Positions 10,726 through 20,343 of a stretch of DNA of 64,000 bases are shown piece by piece; position 1 is the stretch's first letter, and each line of letters begins with the position of its first letter. Source of the DNA: Mytilus trossulus (Eukaryota); the NCBI RefSeq assembly GCF_036588685.1, contig NC_086380.1:37944001-38008000 (forward strand), in the 5' to 3' direction. Under the pieces are notes generated by a model. That model was not told the DNA's origin. It ran no database searches and saw nothing but the letters and a program-made list of their open reading frames with translations. The position numbers and the translations under genes were made by a program.

Positions 10726-11968
10726 AATAAATAGGTCCCGAAACTGGGTTTGGTCCATTATGTAATCAAAACAGTAAATTCACTTTTAATTCAAATGATG
10801 TGACAAATTGTCTAATGAATACAATTTTGATCATAGGAAAAGGACCTTTTTATTACTGACGGTTAGTTCTCAGAAAACACATATTTCTTACTTTATTATT
10901 TCTTAATAAGCACAATATATTGAGGATTGAATCAGATGACACTTTATCAATTTCATCAATATACGATAATGGCCTGTAGAGGAGGTGTGTATCAACATTT
11001 ATCAACCCCAGTAAGGGTTATTCCACAAGGAATATACACCGACTCAATAATTGTTTTTTTTCTTCAGTTAACTGAACACATGCTGAACGAGCAAATTATA
11101 AATTAAAGTAAAATATTAAAACAGATTGTCAGATCACTTCCGGTCTAACGTTAGAAATTTTGTTTTGTCTATAATAAAAATTGACATTTCACCAATGCAC
11201 AACAAAGGTAGGCTATTTTTTGTTAAATGTAGAAAACATTTGAATGGGTCAGTGCATTTCTAATATTGTTTCATACAAAAAAGTGATGCCCATCAATTAA
11301 AATACTGCAAAAAGCTTACCTATCTACAAAAAAACTATTAAAAAGTGCTTGCCTCTTTAACAATCACTATTATGTATAAATACAAAATGTGCTTGTGATT
11401 TTTTTTTTAATATTTGTGTAATCATGAGAATTATAAATGTTATTGATGTTTAAATCAAGTATGTGTATAGATTTGATTTTATAAGTGCAGCCTGATGCAA
11501 TATCCATAATAATTATCACATATAAACATTACAATTACATCTCAATACATAATTTATTAGTTACTGTGTAAGCCAGACTTTAACATGTTTAGTAGAGACA
11601 AACTATATTCATACAATTCATTGGGAGGGGGGGGGGGGGGGGTAGGGGAGCAAAAGGATGGATAAGCTTTATCCCAGATTCCAAAAGTGCACTCCTTTCA
11701 ATTCATTGCTCAAAATGAAAGTCACATATACCACATTTTCATATGTCATATGTTTGCCTTCAATATCACGTTTATACTAAAATTCTGCGCGAAATGACCA
11801 AAGGTTTCCATCAATAACTTTATAACTGTATTATTGGATACAACAGTTGGTACTTTTATTGGTAGATATGGGCGTTTATATTTCCCTTTTACTTATATTT
11901 CAATACATATAGTCGTCCATATGTTTTCCCTGAGATTCACTTCTTTCTTTATTATACTGATAAAATAT

Positions 11969-12136
11969 ATAAATTTATGTGCGGTATGCGTATGAATTTT
12001 CGGATCTATTTTAGTCTATTGTTTAACAATAGAATAAACTAGTTATGCAAATTAGTAAGGTATATAATAGATAGAAAACGGGTTTTTAAGTTTATCGAAG
12101 GCTGGGCGGTGACCACTCGACTTGCAGACAATTTTT
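11969..12136 (+). repeat. Split direct repeat A1 (168 bp; A2 at 16401-16568)
   Basis: ATAAATTTATGTGCGG...CTTGCAGACAATTTTT; no mismatch to A2 seen by eye. Confidence 0.95.
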
Positions 12137-12140
12137 CAAG

Positions 12141-12962
12141 ATGTCCGATTCAGAGCTAGACCTCGATGATAGAGAATTAACCAAGTCTCCTGACAAGTCA
12201 ATTGAAGCTTTACGTTCTGCTGCTGAACCAACAAAGAGAAAAGGTAATTCAGAGCAAGATAGGGCACCTGAAGTTTCAAACGCAGATTTGTTTTCTTTGA
12301 TGACAACTTATTTCAATAATAAACTTTCCGGTATAGAGAAGAATTTCTCAGATACTACAGAGACGTTAGTAAAGAGAGCAAAGAAGGCAGAGAATACCTT
12401 TAAATTTAAGGGGAATCAGTTACAATTTGAGCTTAACTCTGACATTCAAGACAGTATAAGCACGGCAATAGGCTACATTGAGAAGAATCGACCTAAAAAG
12501 GCAGTTAGGGTTTTAGAAGATTCGTCTGTCCAGCTCAAGAAGAGAAATAAATTAATTAGAATCGCGGATAAGTCCGAGGGCGGTTGGAGAACGGTGAATG
12601 AATACCTTTCAGATGAAGTGGCCAGTGACTCGGAAGACGAGAAAAGAATACGCGCCGCAGGTAACAGGGCAGTTGAAAAGATCAAAGCAGAGAAAACAGA
12701 TAAACGCAGCAGTAGAAAGCGTCCGGCAGAAGCATCTGGTTCAACAGCTCAAATGGCACATAATGGTACAGGTGGTTCTGATGCTACATTTCGCCTGCAG
12801 CCCTTTCGAGGGGGCTTGGCCGCCAGCGGCCAAAGTTTCGGCAACCAAAATAGCTTCAAGACCTCAGACGTCTGTTACAACTGTGGCATGCAAGGGCACT
12901 GGGCAAGAGACTGCAGGAAGGGAAAGGCAAGGACAGGACCTTCCAGAGGATCTTCTTCTTAA
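12141..12962 (+). CDS. gag: Gag-like ORF1 with CCHC zinc knuckle
   Basis: 273 aa; C-terminal CYNCGMQGHWARDC; ATG 4 nt after the end of A1. Confidence 0.88.
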   Translation: MSDSELDLDDRELTKSPDKSIEALRSAAEPTKRKGNSEQDRAPEVSNADLFSLMTTYFNNKLSGIEKNFSDTTETLVKRAKKAENTFKFKGNQLQFELNSDIQDSISTAIGYIEKNRPKKAVRVLEDSSVQLKKRNKLIRIADKSEGGWRTVNEYLSDEVASDSEDEKRIRAAGNRAVEKIKAEKTDKRSSRKRPAEASGSTAQMAHNGTGGSDATFRLQPFRGGLAASGQSFGNQNSFKTSDVCYNCGMQGHWARDCRKGKARTGPSRGSSS

Positions 12963-14949
12963 AGATCATAACAGTGACATTTTCAAGGTACAAGATTATG
13001 ATATTGTTGAAACATTTTATGAATATGAAAATTGTAATTCTGATATTTATGTTAAAGGTCGTTTGAAAAAATCTATTAACTTTTGGAAACAAATTAATGC
13101 TTCAGATTTCATTTTGAATGTTATTACAGATGGTTACAAAATTCTTTTGCTTAACGAGCCTGAAGAAATATTCTTAAGAAATAACAAATCAGCATTTGAT
13201 AACAATGAATTTGTCTCGAAAGCTATTTTAGATTTAATGAAAGGGGGCTTGATACGAGAGGTATCGAGTAGACCGCACGTGGTTAATCCTTTGACCGTCT
13301 CGACTGCGAAAAATAAACACAGGTTAATTTTAGATTTACGACATGTAAACAAACAGGTAGTCGATAGCAAGATTAAATTTGAAGATTGGAAAGTAGTTAA
13401 ACAGTATTTATCTTCTAATTGTTTCGGATTCGTTTTTGATAAGAAATCAGGATATCATCATATTGATATTTTTAACGAACATCAGAAATATTTAGGTTTC
13501 TCCTGGAAATTAGGAGGTGTAACAAAGTTTTTCGTTTTTACTGTACTTCCTTTTGGTTTGAAATCTAGCGGATATATCTTTACTAAAGTAGTTAGACCTT
13601 TAGTAAAACATTGGCGAAAGAAAGGAATCAAAGTCGTTGTTTATTTAGATGACGGGTTCGGTTTAGCCGATAATGAAAACACATGTAAAATGCATTCTGA
13701 TATAGTAAAGTCAGATCTTATATCATCGGGGTTCGTACCAAACAGAGATAAATGTCACTGGACACCAACACAAACATTAGAGTGGTTAGGTTTTATATGG
13801 AATTTAGACATATGTAAACTAGATATACCAGATAGAAAAAAGAATGATTTAATTGACTTAGTTAATGTTATACTTAACAGTTCCTGCAAAGTGAAAGTAA
13901 GATTGTTAGCAAAAGCAGCTGGTAAAATCATTTCTTTTACGCCTGCTTTAGGTCACATTACACAGATCATGTCGAGAGGTTTGTTTGAAGTTATAAATTT
14001 AAGACAAGATTGGAACCAATCTATTAATATAAATCATTGTAACGCTTGTATCAGAGATCTGATATTTTGGAGAGATAGCATTTGTAAGTTAGAACCAGTT
14101 TCTTTGTTAGGATTGGATTCTGAATTTTACATATTTACAGATGCAAGCAATACAGGGGCTGCTGGATATATTGATAATCTAAAACAGATTATGCATAAAT
14201 CTTGGTCTGACGATGAGAAATTAAAGAGCTCCACTTGGAGGGAAGTCAAAGCAATAGAGTTGTCTATATTAAGTTTTGCACGTTTGCTTAAACATTGCAC
14301 GGTATCGTTTTATACAGATAATCAAAACGCTGTAACAATAGTTCACAAGGGTAGTAAAGTACCAGAATTACAGTCTTTAGCTTTATCAATATACGATTGT
14401 TGTCGTAAAAATGATATTACTATTTTTGTTAACTGGATTCCAAGGGAACAGAATGAACAAGCAGACATGCTAAGTAGAATTGTCGATATTAACGACTGGC
14501 GTATTTCAGATGAATTTTTCACATTCTTGAATGATTTATGGGGTCCATTTTCAGTGGATAGGTTTGCTAGCTTTGAAAATACGAAATTACAAAAGTTTAA
14601 TTCTTTGTATTGGAACCCAGGTTCTTTATGCGTCGACGCTTTCACGTGCGACTGGTCCGGTGGGAACAACTGGCTAGTACCTCCAGTAACTGAGGTTAGC
14701 AGAGTTATAAATCATTTAGTAAAATGTAAAGCTAAAGGAACTTTGATAGTTCCGAATTGGCCTTCATCGCCATTTTGGCCGTTGATTTTTGACACTGGTC
14801 TAAAATATAGAAAGTACATAATTGATGTGCTTCAGTTCAACGAACCAGAGAGAATTTTCGAATCTGGAAATAATTTGAACTCTGTTTTTGTGAGAGTAGA
14901 TTTCAAAGGATCTGTATTAGCTGTTTTGTTAGACGCTTCATATTGTTAA
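12598..14949 (+). CDS. pol: Pol: reverse transcriptase, RNase H and C-terminal DNA N6-adenine methyltransferase-like domain (overlaps gag; true start uncertain)
   Basis: RT motifs RLILDLR, FD.KSGYHH, VLPFGL, YLDDG, WLG; RNase H FTDAS, SSTWRE, YTDNQN, WIPREQNEQAD; MT-like DRFAS...VDAF..DW...NWLVPP...GTLIVPNWPS.PFWP. Confidence 0.93.
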   Translation: MNTFQMKWPVTRKTRKEYAPQVTGQLKRSKQRKQINAAVESVRQKHLVQQLKWHIMVQVVLMLHFACSPFEGAWPPAAKVSATKIASRPQTSVTTVACKGTGQETAGRERQGQDLPEDLLLKDHNSDIFKVQDYDIVETFYEYENCNSDIYVKGRLKKSINFWKQINASDFILNVITDGYKILLLNEPEEIFLRNNKSAFDNNEFVSKAILDLMKGGLIREVSSRPHVVNPLTVSTAKNKHRLILDLRHVNKQVVDSKIKFEDWKVVKQYLSSNCFGFVFDKKSGYHHIDIFNEHQKYLGFSWKLGGVTKFFVFTVLPFGLKSSGYIFTKVVRPLVKHWRKKGIKVVVYLDDGFGLADNENTCKMHSDIVKSDLISSGFVPNRDKCHWTPTQTLEWLGFIWNLDICKLDIPDRKKNDLIDLVNVILNSSCKVKVRLLAKAAGKIISFTPALGHITQIMSRGLFEVINLRQDWNQSININHCNACIRDLIFWRDSICKLEPVSLLGLDSEFYIFTDASNTGAAGYIDNLKQIMHKSWSDDEKLKSSTWREVKAIELSILSFARLLKHCTVSFYTDNQNAVTIVHKGSKVPELQSLALSIYDCCRKNDITIFVNWIPREQNEQADMLSRIVDINDWRISDEFFTFLNDLWGPFSVDRFASFENTKLQKFNSLYWNPGSLCVDAFTCDWSGGNNWLVPPVTEVSRVINHLVKCKAKGTLIVPNWPSSPFWPLIFDTGLKYRKYIIDVLQFNEPERIFESGNNLNSVFVRVDFKGSVLAVLLDASYC

Positions 14950-15179
14950 TATTAAGTCTTTTTATTTACAGAATTGTTTTTACTATATGAATATTGATGT
15001 AATATGTGTGTGTTGGAAGTCACTGGACGTTATACTCTTTGGTCACTGGACTAAATCTTTTAGTAATACTGTATGGTCACTGGACCTGATTGATATGCTT
15101 TGATTCAGGTAAATATGTTATGTAATAGAATTTTTATCTTTTTACAAAAAGATTGTAATTACTGTATATCTATTTTTAG

Positions 15180-16196
15180 AACATTTTTTCGACTGGATTC
15201 TGGTCACAGTTAAGTTTGGTTAAGCACACAGAACTCAGATTACTTTACTCAAATCTAAATGCAACTGTCTTAGATTCGAGGGCCAAGACAACTGTTACAA
15301 AATATATTGGAGGTTTCAAACGTTTTCTAAAGTGGACACAAAAATACAAAGAGATAACTTCAGTACTTCCGTGTAATAAACTTTATGTGGGTTTATACTT
15401 GCAACATTTGATAGAGTCATCCGAAGGTTTTAGTTCAGTAGATACAGCATTTTATAGTATAAAATGGGCTCATCGTATTGCTGGCGTAACTGATCCATGC
15501 GAATCTGAACTAGTCAAGAGTATACTAGAAGGTGCTAAGAGAATACTATCTCGTCCGAAAAAGAAAAAAGAACCAGTTGACTCGAATTCGATGATTAAAC
15601 TGTTTGATAAATATCAAGATCGTAATTCACTAAAAGAAGTGCGTTTATTGTTAATGTGTTCGTTAATGTATACAGGATTTTTGCGTTTCAATGAGTTATG
15701 CAACATCACAGCTAAAGACATAGTTTTTCATACTTCGCATGTCAACATTTTTATTCGTAAGAGCAAAACAGATTGTTATAGACATGGTAATAATGTTGTC
15801 ATTTCTAGATTAGATAGTTCTTACTGTCCTGTAAAGCTTTTGCAAAGTTATCTAGTTTTAGCTAAGATTGAGAATAATTCTGAATTCTTTATATTTCGTG
15901 CATTGTCTTTTTTAAAGAAAACTAATTCTTTTATATTGAGAAGAAAAAATGTAAAAATTTCGTATACTCGAGCAAGAGAGTTAGTCAAAGAGGCCTTATC
16001 ACAAATCGGTTTGAATGTAAACAAATTTGGTTTACACAGTTTCAGAGCAGGCGGTGCCACAGCGGCCGCTAAACATGATATACCAGATAGACTTTTTAAA
16101 ATACATGGAAGATGGAAATCTGATTTAGCTAAAGATGGTTACGTATCAGATAGTTTAGAAAAACGATTATCAGTTTCTAAGAATTTAGGTTTATAA
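15180..16196 (+). CDS. Tyrosine recombinase (YR); frame opens directly after TTTTTAG at 15173-15179
   Basis: Catalytic residues present: FLRFNE (R), KSKTD (K), HSFRAGGAT (HxxR), HGRW, and DGY (Y). No ATG near the 5' end of the frame. Confidence 0.93.
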   Translation, partial: NIFSTGFWSQLSLVKHTELRLLYSNLNATVLDSRAKTTVTKYIGGFKRFLKWTQKYKEITSVLPCNKLYVGLYLQHLIESSEGFSSVDTAFYSIKWAHRIAGVTDPCESELVKSILEGAKRILSRPKKKKEPVDSNSMIKLFDKYQDRNSLKEVRLLLMCSLMYTGFLRFNELCNITAKDIVFHTSHVNIFIRKSKTDCYRHGNNVVISRLDSSYCPVKLLQSYLVLAKIENNSEFFIFRALSFLKKTNSFILRRKNVKISYTRARELVKEALSQIGLNVNKFGLHSFRAGGATAAAKHDIPDRLFKIHGRWKSDLAKDGYVSDSLEKRLSVSKNLGL

Positions 16197-16226
16197 CATT
16201 TTCACTGACTGCTTTCTTTGTACGTC

Positions 16227-16402
16227 GAAATGGTCACCGTGCCTGTTAGTATCAGAACTATTCTTGTCTTATTTATATACATATATACAATATGAGTTAG
16301 TTAAGAACAGAAATTAGAAGCAGAGTTGTACAAGAAAAATAGAGCAAGTTAGCACATAAATATGTTATGTTCGTTTGAACATCGTGAATTAAGAACATAA
16401 AT
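16227..16402 (+). repeat. Split direct repeat B1 (176 bp; B2 at 16748-16923)
   Basis: GAAATGGTCACCG...AAGAACATAAAT; no mismatch to B2 seen by eye. Confidence 0.95.
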
Positions 16403-17779
16403 AAATTTATGTGCGGTATGCGTATGAATTTTCGGATCTATTTTAGTCTATTGTTTAACAATAGAATAAACTAGTTATGCAAATTAGTAAGGTATATAAT
16501 AGATAGAAAACGGGTTTTTAAGTTTATCGAAGGCTGGGCGGTGACCACTCGACTTGCAGACAATTTTTTTAGTGTATTGTTAAATGTGTATATATAGTAT
16601 ACTGATTTGTAATGTTTATTTTATAGATTTGATATGATGAAGTGTTTACGCAGAGATGTTTAGGACATTATTGTTTGATGAAATGAACTGAAAAGACATT
16701 TATAGAAAATTGATTACTAGTAGATTGTGAATTATGATGAATAAATAGAAATGGTCACCGTGCCTGTTAGTATCAGAACTATTCTTGTCTTATTTATATA
16801 CATATATACAATATGAGTTAGTTAAGAACAGAAATTAGAAGCAGAGTTGTACAAGAAAAATAGAGCAAGTTAGCACATAAATATGTTATGTTCGTTTGAA
16901 CATCGTGAATTAAGAACATAAATGTATTTTAGGGCGTTTCTTTAAACAGTGTGAATGGTAATAGATCTAGAATAGTTACCAGTTTATTGTTACTACTGTT
17001 TATTGTTACTTTTGTTTTTTGTTACTTTTATTTATTGTTACATTAGTTTTTTGCTTTTATTAGCCTTACCTATATTCTTACGAAGCATTTGACGAACTGA
17101 AAAAAACACAAATATATATGATATATATGTATATTGATAAATTACATCAGAAGGCATAACATGTAGATCATCACAGTCGGTAATGGTTTAATTACAAAGA
17201 TTTGTTTATAGATTTTAAAACAAATATTTTGTGCTTCAGAAAAATGCATGACAATTAGGTTAGGCTTATTTTTGTTTCCATTTAATAGAAAAGTACTAAT
17301 TATATGGCAAGTATGCAAGTACAAAAAATGTTCCTTGTTTAGTACCTTCAATATTTTTCTCTACAATATCTTCCATGCATATGTATGCAGCATACTTTTC
17401 ATATACCAAGTATTTATGAATTTTTGAATTAGTTTGTTACTAATATGGTGGAATATGCGTCAGTTTTTCTCAACGTTGCAGTCATTCTTTGAATAAGTAT
17501 TTCTTGTAAGAAAATTTAAAGCCACATCAATTTTTTTTTGATTTTCGGGCTTTTGGCCAGACTATAAAAGAACAAAAATCCATGTTTGCCGATGAACTCC
17601 ACGTTAGAATGTGCCTAACTGCATAACACAAAGCATCCCAACATTTCTCTAGCCTTATATAGCATTAAATGTTTTAAGAATGTCATATTATTATTATAAT
17701 GCAAAATTTAATTGGTGTTGTTTCTAGTTATTTTCTGAGATATCGAAATTTCAGTGACGGTCATGAAGTAGCTAATATT

Positions 17780-18551: not shown

Positions 18552-20343
18552 TAGAGGTCGGTCATTTAAAGACGTATCAACCGTGTCATATACGTTGACG
18601 TATCCGCATCTGCAGATATATAAAAAAAAACGTATATGATCCCGAGCTTTGGAAATATCGAGTTTTTTGTGGAATATGTAACCCTACTTTTAAAGATATT
18701 CCTGATAGTTGGAACAGTTTATAGGCATGATAGGAGTGAATACGGTAAAAATCGTTTGTTTGTGTATGAACTTGTGCTCACGTAGAACCAAATGATTAAT
18801 TGACAAATAGAGTGATACTCAGTACTGTCTGTTACCTTTTATAATAAAATCGCAAATGAACAATATTTAAAGTTCCTTACATGTATATAAGTAGTACTTT
18901 TGATGTTTTTTTTCTGTGTTTATTCATATAAGATCTTGAAATATTTTTTAACTAGATTATTAAAGGATTGTGTACGAAATTCGTGTACCTGCCAAACATT
19001 GGCGCCATTTTAAGGGCATGTAAAAGTAGTTGATGGAACCCCTTATTTTTTTTTTACAAAACACCACTATCACAAATATTGAAAGTGTATGTTTATTCAT
19101 GTAAGAACTTGAAATATACTATTTTGATCTGAGCGTCACTGATGAGTCTTATGTAGACGAAACGCGCGTCTGGCGTATGAAATTATAATCCTGGTACTTT
19201 TGATAACTATGTTTGATTGTTCCGAAGAGATTCCAATATTTTTTTTTATATGAAGTATGGTCTTATTAATAAGCTCGGGATCACATAATATTGTTTATAT
19301 ATCTGCAGATTCAGATACGTCAACGTATACGATACGTATCAACCGTATCGTAGAGCATTTGCATCAATCAAGTATTTGATGGCGTATCCGTATCGACGTA
19401 TCGTATAACACGTATATGAGGAAAAGATAGATTAAGTAAAGTTGGTCCCGATGAAAATATTATTTAATGCATTAAATTTTAAATCAGATCGGGGTAAAAT
19501 CATTATTTTCGACAAATCTGTTCGATACGTATACGTCGATCCGTGCACGTATCCTGATACGTGAATAATGCAAATGCTCTCGTTAGAGGTCGGTCATTTA
19601 AAAACGTATCAACCGTATCGTAAACGTTGACGTATCTGCATCGAGCTTAAGAACACTTTACGTTCGAAACAATCAAACATTCACTTTCAAAATTTGCAAT
19701 AGTGGTGTTTTGTAAAAATAATGATAATAAGGTCTATCAACTACTTTTACATGCCCTTAAAAAGGGGCCAATGTAGGGCAGGTACACGAATATCGTACAC
19801 AATCCTTTAATATTCTAGTTAAAAAATGTTTCAAGTTCTTCCATGAATAAACATACACAAAAAAATCAAATGTACTACTTATATACATGTAACATTGTAA
19901 GGAACATTGAATATTGTTCATTTGCCGTGTAATCATAAGAGGTAATAGAAACACCAGATGTCTTCAGATGTCATATAAATACATGTACATTTAATAAAAC
20001 AGTACTGAGTATCACTCTATTTGTCAAATAACAATTTGGTTCTACGTGAGCCCAACTTAACACACAAATAAACTATTTTGCCGTATTCACTCCTATCATG
20101 CATGTAAACTGTTCCAACTATCCGGAATATCTTTAAAAGCCGGATTATATGTTCCACAAAAACTCGATATTTCCTAATTATTTTATTATTTTTAGCATTA
20201 GAAATTAATCAGTTGCTCATTTGCATTATTGAAAGTACATAAAATTAAAGCTCGAGATTACATACTGTTTTTTGATAAATCTGCAGATGCGGATACGTCA
20301 ACGTAAACGATACAGTTGATACGTCTTAAATGACCGACCTCTA
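18552..20343. mobile_element. Fold-back of two oppositely oriented hAT-like MITE copies (TAGAGGTCGG ends) around a related 230-bp MITE
   Basis: TAGAGGTCGGTCATTTAA at 18552 and 19584, with its reverse complement ending at 20343; 18651-19090 is the reverse complement of ~19680-20175; central TAGAGCATTTGCAT...ATGCAAATGCTCT at 19351-19580. Confidence 0.8.
19133..19176 (+). ncRNA. Minimal type I hammerhead ribozyme (retrozyme/Penelope-associated)
   Basis: Helix I GCGTCA/TGGCGT; core CTGATGA; helix II GTCT-tatgt-AGAC; GAAA; minimal helix III AC-gcgc-GT; GTC cleavage triplet ending at 19170. Confidence 0.88.

Follow-up and report, generated by a model that had tools for sequence, protein, structure and literature searches.

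Complementary arms in the split direct repeats of a PAT-like retrotransposon and their possible part in reverse transcription

An intact PAT-like tyrosine-recombinase retrotransposon at positions 11969-16923 of the stretch of DNA analysed here (64 kb, hereafter the window; the host genome is ~1.3 Gb) carries short complementary arms in its two kinds of direct repeat, such that the start of each B repeat can pair with a segment close to the end of each A repeat. Comparison across 28 families indicates that this A/B arm pairing is real and under selection, and that it seems not to have been described before although the element group is known; the role proposed for it is hypothetical. In the literature searched, much of it available in part, we met no account of split-repeat elements that describes complementarity between A and B; an earlier mention may exist in the first papers on PAT, kangaroo and TOC1 or in those of Goodwin and Poulter and of Poulter and Butler (2015).

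Results

The element has the layout A1-gag-pol-YR-B1-A2-B2, with all parts on the forward strand. Its left end is formed by the A1 repeat (11969-12136; 168 nt, identical to A2 at 16401-16568) and its right end by the B2 repeat (16748-16923; identical to the 176-nt B1 at 16227-16402), while a unique spacer of 179 nt (16569-16747) lies between A2 and B2. The coding part comprises a gag ORF with a CCHC zinc knuckle (12141-12962; PF00098, E 9e-7), a pol frame with reverse transcriptase, RNase H and a Dam-like methyltransferase (12598-14949; RVT_1 3e-18, RNase H 5e-4) and a tyrosine recombinase frame (15180-16196; PF00589, E 5e-10). The Dam-like hit (E 1.6e-4) falls under the curated cut-off, and three relatives gave 0.047, 0.0046 and 5.9e-7. 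PAT-like traits present in the element are the split direct repeats (A1...B1-A2-B2), a methyltransferase-like domain after RNase H, the Gag zinc knuckle, a recombinase on the same strand and internal repeats downstream of the recombinase. Placed by description, the element agrees in these respects with Pat1-like elements of the echinoderm form, as set out in passages of PMC4157794. In a quick tree of reverse transcriptase and RNase H, which contained no reference PAT sequences and came with a long-branch warning, the 28 families formed one group (98), separate from elements that carry inverted terminal repeats together with an internal complementary region (ITR/ICR) and from hydrolase-bearing elements.

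Several further observations concern this element and its surroundings. At 15019-15086, in the interval separating pol from the recombinase, there are three short GTCACTGGAC repeats, one mismatch off the arm core described below. One contig of run X4 omits the entire pol frame (12986-14971) at GT..AG ends, joining the end of gag to the region upstream of the recombinase. Solo A-spacer-B units, which are expected from recombination between A1 and A2, occur elsewhere in the genome (G000 C65:3247777, C2:22732968, C11:2968969 and others). Nested long inverted repeats at 18576-19949 of the window are MITE-like, and another group of recombinase elements (L115 and L116, 7730-8220) has a spacer with a poly(A) run before the second repeat.

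Arm a, defined by the core copies and the predicted pairing, lies at 12099-12128 in A1, which is the 5' end of the predicted RNA, and at 16531-16560 in A2; arm b comprises the first ~18 nt of B1 and, in B2, lies at the predicted poly(A) site. The original prediction had matched the B1 start (16224-16244) with the A end (16531-16553 and 12099-12121), and we verified these strings at their positions, with the correction that the arm in A does not sit at the very end of the repeat, being 15-37 nt before it. Exact copies of the shared 9-nt core number four in the whole 64-kb window, and each of A1, B1, A2 and B2 has one of them. As had also been proposed, extension of the pairing by GTC is restricted to B1, since B2 has ATA at the corresponding place. 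The confirmed helix is longer than first described, because pairs between 16219-16222 and 16555-16558 are added to those between 16224-16228 and 16549-16553 and between 16231-16240 and 16538-16547 (pair probability 0.93-1.0); the pair probability of the GCCT/AGGC part is just ~0.48. Pairing and flank tests show that the flank found at B1 only (16212-16226), a pyrimidine tract at 16212-16220 followed by GTC, lengthens the helix, and with flanks the duplex reaches -36.3 kcal/mol for B1 compared to -24.2 for B2. Relative to shuffled sequences, the element's duplex had z -2.7 (2/200 as good) and the fold of the B1-A2 segment z -3.8 (0/100 as good), and a Watson-Crick aligner gave p 0.01 for the arms. 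Both arms were unchanged in all five close copies examined. A search of 11500-17500 against Rfam gave no match to any known structured RNA or ribozyme family, with one chance-level hit (E 3.4). The hammerhead core has a required pairing that is lacking at the GAAA beside the stem, and a hammerhead ribozyme was rejected as a candidate.

We assessed the pairing in other elements of this genome. A recombinase search gave 150 matches, 60 of which were fetched; including the window element, 46 of 61 loci had clean A and B repeats, and these were grouped at <80% recombinase identity into 28 families, two of them represented by sister copies with better-defined edges. From clade to clade the arm cores differ entirely, but within a family the B start still pairs with the A end. 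When partners were permuted, own pairs exceeded cross-family pairs in duplex energy (z 10.3) and Watson-Crick score (z 9.9; p <=1e-5 for both), while the direct-orientation control had z 0.0. A stricter aligner gave z 12 and ranked the own partner best in 15/28 families, and the own score exceeded that of other clades in all eight tree groups, with the smallest margin in L090/L094/L099. The p values overstate independence because families share ancestry, and the cross-family background is also raised because related families share arms. Taken singly, 19/28 families had an own-pair duplex z below -2 relative to shuffles, with nine falling short, and 18/28 reached p <=0.05 with the Watson-Crick aligner, with ten missing it; L090 and L099 are among the weakly pairing families. 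RNAalifold recovered the helix unaided in the five-family clade of this element, with 5/16 pairs changed on both sides, which is indicative as it comes from five sequences; in a second clade the aligned A ends were misaligned. The condition set beforehand for rejecting the proposal, a lack of conservation or an equal match in shuffled controls, did not hold: the complementarity proposed for this one element is kept in divergent relatives with its letters changed, and surpasses that of shuffled and cross-family controls (z about 10 for own against cross).

Sequence outside the repeats distinguishes between the possible partners. The 12 nt upstream of B1 add family-specific pairing (p 2e-5) and those upstream of B2 add none (p 0.72), while the A2 flank contributes weakly (p 0.011) and the 10-nt A1 flank nothing. 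At least eight of the expected end-to-end pairs formed in B1-A2 folds of 25/28 families, a raw count without shuffle control. Two families have an extra helix of 20-22 bp that joins the unique sequence before B1 to the start of the spacer and is possible only for B1 with A2; its score was reached by 2/28 own pairs and 0/756 cross pairs, and the overall B1-spacer signal is driven by these two families, the medians being equal. Closure of B1 and A2 into a loop, one of the two structures originally suggested, is supported by the own-pair tests, the B1-specific flank pairing, the B1-A2 folds and the extra helix of these two families. The other, in which the 5' end of the transcript pairs with B, found its support in different families. 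In one well-supported clade of six families, the end of the spacer adjoining B2 is complementary to the opening codons of gag just past A1 in 6/6, with changed letters (p <=0.045 in each; z 3.4 over 28 families, with z 0.2, 0.0 and -1.0 in three controls), and such a helix is possible only between the 5' and 3' ends of the RNA. This A1-B2-only helix is clear in that one clade and present in 7/28 families in total, and is strong where the B1-A2 helix is weakest. In the window element, GGACAT in the spacer (16663-16668) is a possible partner of the gag start (p 0.16 alone).

Signals around the arms suggest where the RNA begins and ends. A TATA-like box (12061-12067) and an initiator-like motif ending in ATCGA (12087-12098) mark a transcription start in A1 predicted from sequence, and AATAAA lies at 16740-16745 in the spacer. 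We found A(A/T)TAAA within 30 nt upstream of B2 in 24/28 families and upstream of B1 in none, while a pyrimidine tract, identified with a hand-tuned pattern, precedes B1 in 28/28 and B2 in none. The initiator-like motif lies upstream of arm a in 26/28 families, with a TATA-like box ~30 nt 5' of it in 12 of these 26, and the arm begins 4-28 nt downstream of the motif, at which the start is predicted. Because a poly(A) signal precedes B2 and the initiator-like motif lies in A, the arms are placed at the predicted RNA ends. The RNA is predicted to run from just upstream of arm a in A1 to about arm b in B2, an extent that fits DIRS-1, whose RNA omits most of both repeats according to the accessible text of PMC7192593. 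Assembled contigs, none of which is on record as RNA, showed no RNA start, poly(A) site or cDNA end: loose poly(A) ends were absent at B2, and contig starts at 12107 are assembly forks. As markers of RNA ends, the differences between B1 and B2 and between A1 and A2 were too few, and none was common to sister copies. A tRNA primer site was considered and provisionally set aside, as TGG occurs within the first 12 nt of B in only 9/28 families; a search for tRNAs in the genome gave one array, of Lys and Met genes.

The junction between B1 and A2 is an end-to-end copy of the element ends and likely the recombinase site. It is spanned by a conserved hairpin (16352-16414) that bulges slightly at the crossover, while the base of this junction structure is closed by the arms. 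Among split-repeat families, the hairpin had z below -2 in 19/27 (L096 was dropped due to a gap at the junction) and own against cross z -7.2, and was missing in the L073 and L084 clades. The A start recurs in inverted form within B, so that cDNA, while single-stranded, could fold to give the recombinase a double-stranded site. Other recombinase elements found by the family search served as a comparison set of DIRS1-like elements (e.g. L107) and Ngaro-like elements. Folding of five DIRS1-like ICRs gave in every case a single long rod, bulged at the junction and with a top similar to the split-repeat junction hairpin. The link to the internal complementary region of DIRS1 that had been drawn from the window element holds structurally, in that B1-A2 folds like the ICR rod in reverse orientation.

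Elements from outside this genome were drawn from 80 metagenome loci, in which many repeats were collapsed; 44 loci were long enough and eight had a B repeat, three were near-identical to families of this genome, and 23 other families were left. A blind window test on these gave z 4.9, which fell to 2.5 without L150, a contig with an unrelated long inverted repeat, and a loose aligner gave z 2.3. Two contigs (L157, L167) have clear arms and a third (L177) a long B1-specific helix (-34.2 compared to -17.9 for B2), while in L191 B2 pairs better than B1 (-25.0 compared to -15.8). Pairing of this kind is not universal among split-repeat elements. In the Ngaro-like sample (40 stretches, 21 with clean repeats, 15 families), pairing between B start and A end was absent (z -0.7 and 0.3), so that the claim stands for the 28 PAT-like families and not for these 15.

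Discussion

Our preferred reading, which we hold by a narrow balance of probability, is that the four arms make up an RNA scaffold on which reverse transcription of the PAT-like retrotransposon starts and changes templates. Pairing of the outer arms, A1-B2, would turn the RNA into a closed ring, whereas that of the inner arms, B1-A2, would close the internal end-to-end junction copy as a stem topped by a second hairpin. By analogy with CYC5/CYC3 in Ty1, the ring would set the start site of cDNA beside the site of the A1-to-A2 jump, and the stronger B1-A2 stem would stop the inner arms from competing. The least certain step is that, much as in Tf1, the 5' arm itself may be cut and then serve at the B2 edge as the primer.

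A more specific account, self-priming in the strict sense, is tentative. Arm a would pair with arm b at the 3' end of the RNA and undergo cleavage at the B2 edge, with the inner arms hidden by B1-A2 pairing. On this account the split direct repeats would be degenerate inverted repeats, and one inversion of the internal cassette between its arms would produce the DIRS1 ITR/ICR layout. For DIRS-1, the available text of PMC7192593 gives no known primer and cites a proposed 3' hairpin in that role. Strict self-priming does not easily explain why the sequence that B2 retains is that of B1 and not the complement of arm a.

The pairing could instead act in minus-strand cDNA, which we consider rather unlikely. 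The 3' end of the cDNA would fold back on the B1 copy, and a short direct repeat would let a capped 5' fragment of the RNA shift to the B1 edge and prime the plus strand, by analogy with the ITRs in the DIRS-1 model and with h3E/hM/h5E in hepadnaviruses. DIRS-1 cDNA is single-stranded and there is a precedent in HBV, according to the accessible parts of PMC7192593 and PMC8632529, respectively. The sharp B edge and the B1-only pyrimidine tract in 28/28 families (hand-tuned pattern) are also consistent with such a shift, as is a motif of 4-8 nt at the predicted RNA start (12094-12098) that recurs at the B1 edge (16225-16229; TCGA) and covaries across clades (z 6.2, 26 families). Against this, the direct repeat has only 4-8 nt and about five clade-level changes, the B edge lies inside it, and the B2 control of the motif test was also at p 0.017. 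Wobbles lean to the sense strand as well: interior mismatches flanked by three pairs on each side comprise seven G-U and no A-C on that strand (p 0.016 when even odds are assumed, 0.051 relative to cross-family pairs), and the count is likewise 7 to 0 for five DIRS1-like ICRs on their own sense strand. With two-pair flanks the count was 12 to 5 and not significant, and the total over all wobbles (46 G-U, 24 A-C on the sense strand) equalled a composition-matched null (p 0.67). The gap in folding energy between plus and minus strands, which is confounded by base composition, matched that of shuffles. The wobble pattern leans weakly to RNA as the pairing strand.

It is improbable, and somewhat more so, that the helices govern the fate of the RNA, namely gag translation versus packaging or formation of the 3' end, and not DNA synthesis. 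The A1-B2-only helix does cover the first gag codons in 6/6 families of one clade, and arm b lies at the predicted cleavage site, but this account leaves unexplained both the helix straddling the exact B edge and the match to the DIRS1 ICR rod.

We give little credence to the match being a functionless relic of an inverted repeat, or a by-product of one arm having served the polymerase as template for the other. In favour of this, true inverted repeats are present in DIRS1-like relatives and some families pair poorly (L090, L099), but it is in the families with poor pairing that the alternative A1-B2 helix occurs. Moreover, the arms are unrelated between clades and yet paired inside each family, the helices are bulged and include wobble pairs, and the pairing extends into unique flanks and coding sequence. 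That the recombinase or a transcription factor binds the arms as inverted sites in the DNA is very unlikely, as pairing and not sequence is conserved across families and ~150-170 nt separate the arms from the crossover, where there is a conserved hairpin of its own, despite a near-palindrome within the core and the rough symmetry of the arms about the junction.

The arms offer exact positions for mutation and compensation, which would make the priming step of these elements testable. They also bear on a puzzle stated in passages of PMC4157794, in which the transition from split direct to inverted repeats is complex and its intermediates have not been seen. Hidden inverted arms already flank the internal cassette, such that one inversion would do most of the change from direct to inverted repeats.

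Comparison with known systems

PAT-like and Pat1-like elements, as described in excerpts of PMC4157794, PMC3266345 and PMC6681497, share the order A1-B1-A2-B2 with B1-A2 after the recombinase, the zinc knuckle, reverse transcriptase and RNase H, and the methyltransferase-like domain; these excerpts describe direct repeats only, with no mention of A/B complementarity. Ngaro elements (available text of PMC9210276, PMC3783388 and PMC8547959) have the same repeat order but no methyltransferase and often a hydrolase ORF, whereas the window element has the Dam-like hit and no ORF of at least 80 aa downstream of the recombinase, in contrast to L113. B repeats of Ngaro-like elements (L202-L240) begin with TGG in 13/13 families, after L230 and L231 were dropped for bad edges, and this start resembles a primer-binding site for a CCA end. 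The same 13 families have a C-rich run after A2, and between their pre-B1 sequence and the spacer there is weak pairing (z 2.5, compared to 1.7 in the direct control). A CCCACCC-like run directly after the internal junction copy is found in 13/13 Ngaro-like families, in the DIRS1-like elements viewed and in 8/28 PAT-like families (L050, L053, L057, L101-L109, L113, L202-L240).

Long-range pairing between 5' and 3' ends that includes the gag start is also found in Ty1, where CYC5/CYC3 pairing is required for reverse transcription; Ty1 differs in having a tRNA primer, LTRs and two arms in place of four (passages of PMC3592414). In the self-priming elements Tf1 and Tj1, the RNA contains a site complementary to its own 5' end, as is predicted for this element; in Tf1 the site is just past the 5' LTR (PMC4600332, in part); here the site would be the 3' end of the RNA and the cleavage is hypothetical.

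DIRS1-like elements have inverted terminal repeats and an ICR complementary to both termini, whereas the window element has no inverted repeat of at least 25 nt by self-BLAST, only short imperfect arms, and its B1-A2 is a direct copy of the element ends. Each arm of the rod is here interrupted by 100-150 nt of promoter or AT-rich sequence. Both have a four-copy core with two copies per orientation, which in this element is the 9-10 bp core of A1, B1, A2 and B2, and a core of at least 10 nt is conserved in both ITRs and both ICRs of DIRS1-like elements according to the accessible text of PMC3266345. The arms are likely the counterpart of that short core, with the internal cassette in the opposite orientation. 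Since reversing B1-A2 between its arms yields the DIRS1 arrangement, we infer that the two cores are homologous and that a single inversion could lead from one layout to the other.
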